A stretch of 288 nt of DNA. Origin: Escherichia coli. Lineage in GTDB: Bacteria; Pseudomonadota; Gammaproteobacteria; Enterobacterales; Enterobacteriaceae. This document shows positions 1 through 288 of the stretch, piece by piece (the stretch's first letter is position 1; the number at the start of each line of letters is the position of its first letter). The notes beneath the pieces are model-generated. The model had not been told where the DNA came from and searched no databases. It saw only the letters and a program-made list of their open reading frames with translations. A program made the position numbers and the translations under genes. Location of the stretch: the NCBI RefSeq assembly GCF_003334785.1, contig NZ_QOWV01000090.1. The stretch is one strand, 5' to 3'.

Positions 1-76
1 TGGTGGGTCGTGCAGGATTCGAACCTGCGACCAATTGATTAAAAGTCAACTGCTCTACCAACTGAGCTAACGACCC
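1..76 (-). tRNA. tRNA-Lys (anticodon UUU), complete, with genomically encoded 3' CCA
   Basis: Reverse complement of 1-76 reads GGGTCGTTAGCTCAGTTGGTAGAGCAGTTGACTTTTAATCAATTGGTCGCAGGTTCGAATCCTGCACGACCCACCA. It folds as a canonical cloverleaf: 7-bp acceptor stem GGGTCGT/ACGACCC, D-stem GCTC/GAGC, anticodon stem GTTGA/TCAAT with loop CTTTTAA (anticodon TTT, + strand 41-43 = aaa), T-stem GCAGG/CCTGC with T-loop TTCGAAT, then CCA. From memory this matches the E. coli-type tRNA-Lys encoded by the lysT/lysW/lysY/lysZ/lysQ/lysV family. Which paralog this is cannot be assigned from the window, so no symbol is given. Confidence 0.95.
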
Positions 77-110
77 ATACGGGTGTTACCTGAAAGATTT
101 TTACTCGGGG

Positions 111-127
111 CCAATCTTTAAGATTGG
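111..127. repeat. Perfect 17-nt palindrome ccaatctt-t-aagattgg, overlapping the CCA end of the tRNA fragment
   Basis: 111-118 ccaatctt is the exact reverse complement of 120-127 aagattgg, centred on t119. The right arm's tgg (125-127) is the CCA of the 18-nt fragment on the minus strand. An alternative partner for 113-119 (aatcttt) exists at 93-99 (aaagatt), giving a mutually exclusive 7-bp stem. Confidence 0.7.
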
Positions 128-142
128 TGGGTCGTGCAGGAT
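125..142 (-). repeat. 18-nt exact copy of the tRNA-Lys 3' end (3' half of T-stem, 3' acceptor strand and CCA); truncated tRNA fragment
   Basis: + strand 125-142 tggtgggtcgtgcaggat is identical to 1-18 and 223-240. Identity stops abruptly at 143: the fragment continues gactcg where the gene has tcgaac. The flanking sequence shows no further tRNA similarity (about 5 of 15 matches in the adjacent positions by eye). Confidence 0.85.
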
Positions 143-156
143 GACTCGCTTCGCTC

Positions 157-183
157 GCCCTACGGGCCGTTGCTGGCGCAACG
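157..183. repeat. Two adjacent short GC-rich hairpins: gccc-tac-gggc (157-167) and cgttgc-tggc-gcaacg (168-183)
   Basis: 157-160 gccc pairs with 164-167 gggc (3-nt loop). 168-173 cgttgc pairs with 178-183 gcaacg (4-nt loop tggc). Neither is followed by a T/U-run on either strand. Confidence 0.5.
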
Positions 184-196
184 TTATCCTTCACGC

Positions 197-219
197 TTAA
201 CATCTGAGTTTGATGTTAA
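197..219. repeat. Inverted repeat: 8-bp AT-rich stem ttaacatc/gatgttaa with a 7-nt loop, 3 nt from the 3' end of the upstream tRNA-Lys
   Basis: 197-204 ttaacatc is the reverse complement of 212-219 gatgttaa; the loop is 205-211 tgagttt. On the minus-strand transcript it follows the tRNA CCA after only GUU. No U-tract follows it, so it is not an intrinsic terminator. Confidence 0.6.
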
Positions 220-222
220 AAC

Positions 223-288
223 TGGTGGGTCGTGCAGGATTCGAACCTGCGACCAATTGATTAAAAGTCAACTGCTCTACCAACTGAG
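223..288 (-). tRNA. tRNA-Lys (anticodon UUU), partial: tRNA positions 11-76 present, 5'-most 10 nt lie beyond the window end
   Basis: + strand 223-288 is identical base-for-base to + strand 1-66. The anticodon TTT lies at + strand 263-265 (aaa). The missing 5' end would occupy 289-298 if the gene is intact. Confidence 0.93.

Follow-up and report, generated by a model that had tools for sequence, protein, structure and literature searches.

The window, a 288-nt stretch of E. coli DNA, is part of the lysY-lysZ region, and its sense (transcript) strand is the minus strand. Two tRNA-Lys(UUU) genes, lysY and lysZ, flank a spacer of 146 nt (positions 77-222), whose parts are listed in Table 1. ARAGORN found a single complete tRNA gene in the window, at 1-76 (-). 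The 18-mer TGGTGGGTCGTGCAGGAT has exactly three exact occurrences there, at 1-18, 125-142, and 223-240. The copy at 125-142, which reads ATCCTGCACGACCCACCA on the minus strand, spans tRNA-Lys from T-loop position 59 through CCA and is identical to the tRNA 3' end at 18 of 18 positions. It lies inside the spacer, on the upstream side of the complete lysZ gene, from which it is separated by 48 nt (77-124).

A preliminary description of this DNA, made from the sequence alone, had reported an exact copy of the tRNA-Lys 3' end with its CCA, 48 nt away from the complete gene in a 146-nt spacer, and a sharp end of the identity at one boundary. The copy is indeed present, as the third exact one in the window, and both measurements are correct; the boundary lies at 142/143, where tRNA identity breaks off (GAGTC/ATCC in the spacer versus TTCGA/ATCC in the tRNA, the slash marking the boundary). 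On the CCA side, a weak likeness extends for 7 nt more (repeat family D2, 92% over 25 nt). A chance origin of the 18-nt repeat was rejected, as none of 200 dinucleotide shuffles gave any match. A coding reading of the spacer was also set aside: the only long frame, of 54 aa, runs into lysZ and is not credible. A scan of the window for promoters and terminators returned only antisense images of the P2 hairpin and of a leader hairpin.

Table 1. Features of the 288-nt window, in transcript order
Feature	Position	Strand	Basis
lysY, 3' 66 nt of the tRNA-Lys(UUU) gene, cut by the window edge	223..288	-	Exact repeat of 1-66; Rfam tRNA 54.7 bits, 5'-truncated; K-12 coordinates and annotation
Whole short-form RtT unit, 98 nt (trailer, P1-closed domain, and tRNA-like tail)	125..222	-	RF00391; unit separating the 146-nt and 48-nt alleles; fold
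Trailer directly past the lysY CCA, with hairpin H0 UUAACAUC / GAUGUUAA	196..222	-	MFE and centroid folds
P1 5' strand CGUGAAGGAU, complementary to tRNA-Lys positions 59-68	186..195	-	Pairs with 133-142 at 9 of 10 positions, one A.G
P2 hairpin CGUUGC-GCCA-GCAACG	168..183	-	Centroid fold; 99% paired in 17 short forms; part of the scan core
P3 hairpin GCCC-GUA-GGGC, most conserved core motif	157..167	-	Stem invariant in alignments A1 and A2; predicted in folds
P4 region GAGCGAAGCGAGUC, ending in the family junction GAGU(C/A)	143..156	-	Covariation across copies
P1 3' strand AUCCUGCACG, first 10 nt of the 18-nt copy	133..142	-	Fold and alignment
Tail ACCCACCA, last 8 nt of the 18-nt copy, discriminator and CCA included	125..132	-	Unpaired in the 98-nt fold; identical to tRNA-Lys
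48-nt 5' leader of lysZ	77..124	-	Entire spacer in strains without the RtT unit; Klebsiella homologue
lysZ, complete tRNA-Lys(UUU) gene	1..76	-	ARAGORN; Rfam tRNA 79.2 bits; annotation

An RtT element between lysY and lysZ

Scanning the window against Rfam returned the two tRNAs and, at 125-288 (-), a member of the RtT family (RF00391), with 47.6 bits against a gathering score of 45; scored in its K-12 context, the window's copy reached 54.4 bits. The cmscan alignment places the 5' half of the RtT model on the tRNA body, with a 44-nt insertion and non-canonical pairs. We judged this part to be forced and took the real RtT homology in the window to be limited to the last ~71 nt. The tRNA is borrowed for the 5' half of the model because the element is a short form, in which some 41 nt of the model are missing, namely GAGAAC...CGAGAG together with the T-arm pieces in sense and antisense. 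In place of the forced half, P1 was anchored by hand at CGUGAAGGAU. The element begins at the first base past the lysY CCA, on the same strand as the tRNA genes and within their transcription unit. The 18-nt copy is the normal 3' end of this 98-nt RtT-family spacer element.

In the lysT operon of K-12, RtT scores above the gathering score behind all five tRNA-Lys genes (46.7-60 bits). Each of the five copies consists of a variable trailer, the core CGTGAAGGATAACGTTGC....GCAACGGCCCGNAGGGCGAG..CGAGTC, and then the exact 18-nt tRNA end. Comparison of the K-12 tRNA-Lys spacers, a check that had been proposed earlier, recovers the same fragment throughout, together with the shared core, and does not bear out a stray fragment. 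The term "orphan" given to the copy in the preliminary description has to be withdrawn as well, since the sequence beside the sharp boundary is homologous to other RtT elements: the 53 nt upstream of the 18-nt copy are related to RtT cores beside unrelated tRNAs, and not to tRNA-Lys.

E. coli has further RtT elements behind a tRNA-Pro gene (proK) and in the arg operon. The tyrT-tyrV spacer follows the same plan as the lysY-lysZ spacer, with a tRNA, an RtT element whose last 19 nt are those of tRNA-Tyr, a leader of 34 nt, and the next tRNA. The tyrT operon, which had been named as a precedent, is the right relative, since our spacer scores as RtT, the tyrT repeat family. In both, the element follows a tRNA gene immediately and in the same orientation, carries the core ...CGUUGC..GCAACGGCCCGNAGGGCGAG..CGAGU(A/C), and ends in an 18-19-nt tRNA 3' end including CCA, part of which is used by the closing helix. 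The window copy differs from the tyrT elements in that it lies between two tRNA genes and not in a distal tandem array.

Egan and Landy reportedly described, in 1978, 178-bp repeats distal to tyrT/tyrV, each starting with 19 nt of the tRNA-Tyr 3' end. As DNA these repeats are of the same family, with a tRNA end, about 159 nt, and a tRNA end again; like the window unit they are bracketed by direct repeats and prone to change in copy number. The window unit, in contrast, is single, 98 nt long, has a Lys-type end, and holds no credible tpr-like frame. We conclude that a described repeat and RNA family accounts for the stray tRNA end, and that there is no hidden island or integration in the lysT operon. 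The finding is real but largely ordinary, the RtT family being already known.

Predicted structure of short and long forms

The 98-nt unit folds with -32.7 kcal/mol (z = -3.5), and the tail ACCCACCA is left unpaired. Modeling and alignment show here that the first 10 nt of the 18-nt copy are predicted to pair with CGUGAAGGAU, 50 nt upstream, forming a helix (P1) that closes a three-hairpin domain and leaves ACCCACCA single-stranded. When the full spacer is folded, the tail can instead pair with the leader (CCAAUC/GAUUGG).

The predicted helices vary in a compensatory manner. Hairpin H0 of the trailer is AACGUC/GACGUU in Pluralibacter and CAGCAU/AUGCUG in Klebsiella. In the core alignment A1, whose mean column identity is 87%, one pair of P4 occurs as A-U, G-C, and U-A, and in A2 four P4 pairs are changed on both sides; in the window P4 is a short GC-GAA-GC hairpin, which is longer in other copies. 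When the short-form structure was imposed on 17 Lys- and Arg-type elements, 95% of cells could pair, versus 28-47% when the structure was slid along the alignment, and none of 500 shuffles scored as high. A GC-to-UA exchange in P1 separates the Lys and Arg types. The P1 5' strand varies with the tRNA, being GGGAGGAU at Arg, GGGGAAGGAU at Tyr, ACGGCAGGAU at Gln, and AGAGGAU at Pro. The scoring of cognate versus non-cognate P1 is blurred by G-U pairs in purine-rich strands.

In 24 long forms, five P1 pairs are changed on both sides, and there is covariation in P2' and P4 that does not depend on the tRNA. For these long forms RNAalifold prefers another closing helix, between a sense copy of the T-stem 5' strand and the fragment, and this helix is also supported. 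The order of parts in the long forms is an antisense copy of tRNA positions 68-49, a sense copy of ~45-58, the core, and a sense copy of 59-76; of the tRNA-derived parts, the window's short form retains only the antisense 10 nt and the tRNA 3' end. Covariation in RtT was noted earlier by CaCoFold (PMC7657543). In the case of P1, the covariation could partly stem from an origin by inverted copying of the tRNA end and not from selection.

Cognate ends, conservation, and loss of the unit

Our taxonomic sample is one motif scan of representative genomes with GCRACGRCCCGNAGGGYGA, which listed at least 120 matches and is a sample, not a census; about half of the loci listed are chance matches in high-GC bacteria or belong to an unrelated Alcanivorax repeat. 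RtT core loci among the matches listed come from Citrobacter, E. albertii, Enterobacter, Klebsiella, Pluralibacter, Superficieibacter, Acerihabitans, Rahnella, Gilliamella, and uncultured Gammaproteobacteria. Their host tRNAs, again among the matches listed, are Lys, Tyr, Pro(CGG), Pro(UGG), Arg(ACG), and Gln, while the copies at Arg(CCG) are degenerate. The T-loop TTCGAATCC is common to all host tRNAs in this set, and, contig-end matches apart, no RtT copy away from tRNA genes was found among the matches listed.

In nearly every locus listed, the last 18-19 nt of the element repeat the upstream tRNA from T-loop position 58/59 onward, CCA included. Cognate ends were seen in most of the roughly 60 RtT elements found beside five tRNA types among the matches listed. 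Single-base variants of the tRNAs are matched as well: two Citrobacter species have the tRNA-Lys variant ACGCCCCACCA, and Enterobacter BIGb0383 has the tRNA-Tyr variant CCCCCGCCACCA, each reproduced in the RtT end. The Arg and Lys short forms have nearly the same core and the same GGAU/AACG junction, and Arg-type and Lys-type cores group by tRNA type, not by genome. Hence the spread of RtT over the tRNA types dates far back. Models of how RtT arose or what it does must explain why the ends nearly always match the tRNA and form a covarying helix.

The seven-gene operon is shared with K. pneumoniae, where its spacers measure 125, 2, 149, 3, 146, and 133 nt and each long one holds a short-form RtT. 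Between orthologous spacers of K-12 and K. pneumoniae, the part from P1 through the core is 91-95% identical, compared with 59-82% for the trailers and 62-82% for the leaders; the 18-nt copy is conserved at 17-18 of 18 positions in three spacers. Trailers have been swapped between E. coli and Klebsiella. The fourth K. pneumoniae copy (lysW-valZ) is degenerate: its tail is gone, and of the fragment it retains the P1 part alone. Two other copies have a point change in the fragment; the CCA tail is therefore not strictly maintained. The lysT-valT copy is orthologous in Citrobacter and Pluralibacter too. These comparisons show here that the lysY-lysZ element is old, with an orthologue in Klebsiella, and better conserved than its flanks. 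We regard it as probable that the 18 nt of the window are the 3' module of a short-form RtT, a conserved structured element that stands behind gammaproteobacterial tRNAs and ends in a copy of the upstream tRNA's 3' end.

The unit is not present in all E. coli. The 98-nt unit is precisely what distinguishes the 146-nt allele of the lysY-lysZ spacer from the 48-nt one, and the same pattern holds in the other spacers. In K-12 the spacers measure 135, 149, 146, and 132 nt; in EPEC E2348/69, which lacks all four short copies, they measure 35, 51, 48, and 33 nt and consist of the leaders alone, with identical 33-nt spacers repeated. In O157:H7 and another strain, only the lysY-lysZ copy has been kept, and the 156-nt long-form unit behind the last gene is missing as well. 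The lysY-lysZ spacer is filled in 4,068 of 5,426 complete genomes (~75%, leaving ~25% empty) and the other three spacers in about 3,592, 4,147, and 1,996 of the same genomes (a filled range of roughly 37-76%). These counts use a minimum BLAST coverage of 80% and could be too high where separate pieces were joined. The operon itself contains 4 to 6 tRNA-Lys genes in the strains examined. At the E. coli tRNA-Pro locus, RtT has decayed in other ways, by truncation with a REP-like sequence and by IS3 insertion.

The missing unit is bracketed by an 18-nt direct repeat, formed by the real tRNA end (223-240) and the copy (125-142). Deletion by recombination or slippage between these repeats fits the empty alleles best. 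The polarity we infer from the filled state, which is present in Klebsiella and hence ancestral, so that empty sites would be deletions. Recombination between tRNA ends, one of the processes invoked in the preliminary description, probably does operate here, the 98-nt unit being precisely absent in about one quarter of the genomes, but it did not leave the copy behind as an orphan of a local crossover. The fragment varies in presence among related genomes, as had been considered, yet no mobile element lies nearby. K-12 and E2348/69, as strains with and without the copies, are natural knock-outs in which any effects of RtT on tRNA maturation and the stringent response can be sought.

Possible RNA product and alternative readings

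According to Agrawal et al., the lysT operon is transcribed as one polycistronic RNA that is processed by RNase P and RNase E (PMC4176162). The RtT element would be transcribed inside this precursor, which may then be cut by RNase P at the lysZ 5' end or by RNase E in the leader; trimming by 3' exonucleases could leave a discrete ~98-nt RNA ending in CCA, as Bosl and Kersten (1991) reportedly found for tyrT rtT. Release by the tRNA-processing enzymes is suggested because the element ends like a tRNA, with a helix, a discriminator, and CCA. Release of RtT RNAs from tyrT and further tRNA operons has been described, and Northern blots detect them in A. pleuropneumoniae (PMC4986893). We infer that the lysY-lysZ spacer may yield a CCA-ended by-product RNA. 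Three points speak against this step. The element is dispensable, as ~25% of genomes do without it; the tail decays in Klebsiella; and the covered sections of the lysT study do not mention a small spacer RNA for their two lysY-lysZ spacer probes, reporting only large precursors when RNases are mutated and, for the wild type, "surprisingly few" intermediates (PMC4176162).

A comparable case is 3'ETS-leuZ, a spacer RNA of a tRNA operon that, as Lalaouna et al. reportedly described in 2015, sponges sRNAs. Both would be by-products of tRNA precursor processing that might outlast it and have their own function; unlike 3'ETS-leuZ, RtT is a family of repeats whose ends match the tRNA. A function of this kind could lie in mimicry of an uncharged tRNA end, with the free ACCCACCA-3'OH of the released RNA titrating or signaling to RelA/SpoT, the CCA-adding enzyme, RNase T/PH, or Rho. 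This reading is compatible with a short-form RtT element as the best explanation of the 18-nt copy, and would agree with a tail that is identical to the tRNA in most copies and unpaired in the conserved fold. As cited in PMC4986893 and PMC2965389, Bosl and Kersten (1991) reported that the tyrT rtT RNA modulates responses when amino acids are limiting, and a modulating effect on the stringent response was claimed for it. Since the element is dispensable and its tail decays in some Klebsiella copies, we consider mimicry doubtful.

RtT may also be, or have been, a small non-autonomous mobile element templated by tRNA ends, the 18-19-nt repeat being its target-site duplication; we think this improbable. 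As to a MITE-like element, P1 is an inverted repeat and the 18 nt resemble a duplication. Mobility would account for the cognate ends, including both P1 strands, at seven tRNA species (with two Pro isoacceptors and the degenerate Arg(CCG) counted), for the precise insertions or deletions, for the near-identical core and junction of Arg and Lys short forms, and for the T-loop shared by all hosts. A self-propagating RtT would install itself behind tRNAs with the TTCGAATCC T-loop and copy the tRNA 3' end (58/59-76) to its far end and the complement to its near end, a scheme to which we give only a small chance. If true, the 18 nt would be a templated target duplication and RtT a bacterial miniature mobile element of a novel, tRNA-targeted type. 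Against it, copies are orthologous and stable since the split of Klebsiella and Escherichia; no gain event was seen and no recent jump is visible, Arg and Lys cores grouping by tRNA type; empty sites are explained by deletion; and the matches listed include none away from tRNA genes, contig ends apart. We know of no transposase for RtT and of no enzyme candidate for its mobility. RtT resembles the MITE-like REP/BIME sequences in being short, hairpin-rich, multi-copy, intergenic, and polymorphic in presence, but, unlike them, it is strictly linked to tRNAs, co-oriented with them, and variable at its ends according to the tRNA. A likeness of some BIME clusters to rtT has been noted (PMC2965389).

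The more economical reading in the preliminary description was a recombination relic. As a functionless relic, the copy would be a stray 3' end left by unequal crossing-over or slippage between tandem tRNA-Lys genes, and the remainder neutral filler. Units of tRNA plus spacer are indeed duplicated, lost, and converted as the operon evolves, as is evident from the varying number of tRNA-Lys genes, the repeated spacers of E2348/69, and the swapped trailers, and the unit is lost without obvious harm. We nevertheless find a relic hard to credit. Between Escherichia and Klebsiella the core and fragment outdo the trailer and leader in conservation; the helices show compensatory changes, also in P2' and P4, whose sequences do not derive from the tRNA; and the same architecture with cognate ends stands behind five tRNA types in several orders. 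The fragment is an integral module of a conserved 71-nt domain that has a Klebsiella orthologue and a covarying helix.

That the spacer holds a diverged tRNA pseudogene, a decayed tRNA-Lys copy recognizable only at its 3' end, is very unlikely. On the two sides of an insert at T-loop position 58/59, the long forms carry tRNA positions ~45-58 in sense (AAGGTTCGA at Tyr, GCAGGTTCGA at Lys, GGGGGCAGAGGTTCGA at Pro) and positions 49-68 in antisense, and because of these extra tRNA-derived pieces the RtT family may have begun as a partial tRNA duplication. The short form of the window lacks the sense T-arm piece, the 53 nt upstream of the 18-nt copy have their homologues in RtT cores beside other tRNAs, and we saw no remnant of a cloverleaf: ARAGORN gave no second gene, and the Rfam tRNA model had no match in 77-222 at E<=10. 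The 18-nt match is thus not part of a longer pseudogene of this kind.

An integration or excision scar, with the 18 nt as a displaced att core (attR) and the 80 nt between as the remnant of an integrase-borne element, is extremely unlikely and largely refuted: it has the layout of the tRNA att sites of tyrosine-recombinase islands and prophages in its favor (a direct repeat of the tRNA 3' part from the T-loop, strain-variable presence, and, in long forms behind the operon's last gene, the order tRNA, terminator, core, fragment, second terminator, like an element with its own 3' end and terminator), but just 80 nt separate the repeats 125-142 and 223-240, this insert is a conserved structured core that recurs behind five tRNA-Lys genes of one operon and four other tRNA types and is orthologous across genera, and no integrase, island, or foreign gene is present. 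Here the preliminary description, which had called the copy a classic footprint of such events, was right in seeing no integrase involved, the operon lying between cpoB and nadA in every strain examined, with nadA downstream also in Klebsiella. Among 50,697 phage records no intact RtT copy was found, and the sole partial match, a weak one covering 52% of the query at 79% identity, is in an unannotated 7-kb Salmonella phage record. Of the plasmid matches, the two that were inspected and those of megabase size are chromosomal DNA deposited as plasmid, an assignment that does not extend to a few small ones.

As to annotation, PGAP labels RtT in K-12 at tyrT/tyrV (four copies), lysQ, and lysV, and the lysY-lysZ copy is unlabelled. 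RtT spacer elements are under-annotated, since PGAP covers one of the five copies in the lysT operon, the last one ("RtT sRNA"). Rfam-based annotation had already marked four lys-operon RtT copies in a published K. pneumoniae genome (PMC4147364).

Hairpins at the two ends of the RtT unit

The spacer of the lysT operon can form a hairpin at either end of the short-form RtT unit. In the lysZ leader hairpin, the CCA comes from the 18-nt fragment, the copy of the tRNA-Lys 3' end. A compensatory change is found in the Klebsiella version (CCAAUU...AAUUGG), so that the hairpin is kept; in EPEC strain E2348/69, which is without the RtT unit, the genuine tRNA CCA takes the place of that of the fragment in the same hairpin (CCAAU...AUUGG). 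The lysZ leader hairpin may be a conserved feature masking the 3' end. The trailer hairpin also has compensatory variants, AACGUC/GACGUU in Pluralibacter and CAGCAU/AUGCUG in Klebsiella.

Features and their coordinates (L001 and L003 are E. coli K-12 loci)
Feature	Coordinates	Strand	Remarks
Leader hairpin CCAAUC-UUAAA-GAUUGG	window 108-127	-	Fragment CCA able to pair with leader start
Trailer hairpin UUAACAUC/GAUGUUAA	window 199-219	-	Immediately 3' of lysY CCA
54-codon ATG frame	window 39-203	-	Spans RtT core, fragment and leader; enters lysZ gene
tRNA, terminator, long RtT, 18-nt fragment, the same terminator again	L001 2007-2199; L003 6330-6520		Found after both lysQ and lysV in E. coli K-12

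In the lysW-valZ spacer of the K. pneumoniae lys operon (L130 920-1145), only AUCCUGCAC, the P1 part of the fragment, is left, and the tail has diverged. Two further Klebsiella copies carry single changes in the fragment (ACCUACCA and ...CACCG). Judging from these sequences, constraint on the helix part seems to be stronger than on the CCA tail.

Variation in tRNA-Lys gene number and RtT content

Comparison of E. coli tRNA-Lys operon variants (L004, L005, L006) showed different numbers of tRNA-Lys genes per operon (O157:H7, four; K-12, five; E2348/69, six) and repeated occurrence of identical 33-nt spacers. The operon is one that grows and shrinks through duplication of units.

The layout behind lysQ and lysV of K-12, with its two terminator copies, produces a 54-nt direct repeat. 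Precisely this unit, 156 nt in length, is absent from O157:H7 and strain GDSC2227PM. Because RtT is placed past the first terminator here, its transcription would need read-through of that terminator.

At the E. coli tRNA-Pro locus adjoining eptB (L127, L128, L129), RtT is present in about half of the genomes. It occurs in two copies in strain 746 and is truncated, with REP-like sequence in its place, in strain CFE299; in GPEC1356, an IS3 element has inserted behind it.

Look-alikes and artefacts

Among the matches listed for the 19-nt core pattern is a high-copy repeat of Alcanivorax sp. 24 (L065-L085), often in tandem, ~76 nt apart, and with no linkage to tRNA genes. It is probably an unrelated family of the REP-like kind.

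The 54-codon frame is reminiscent of the 'tpr' frame described in tyrT repeats; as a gene, it is not credible. In L001 700-2500, the tRNA genes give antisense matches below threshold (28.5 bits vs 65.7) to the Rfam model of the plastid 'ycf2 5'UTR' and to others like it. We regard these matches as artefacts; the models themselves contain tRNA-like sequence.
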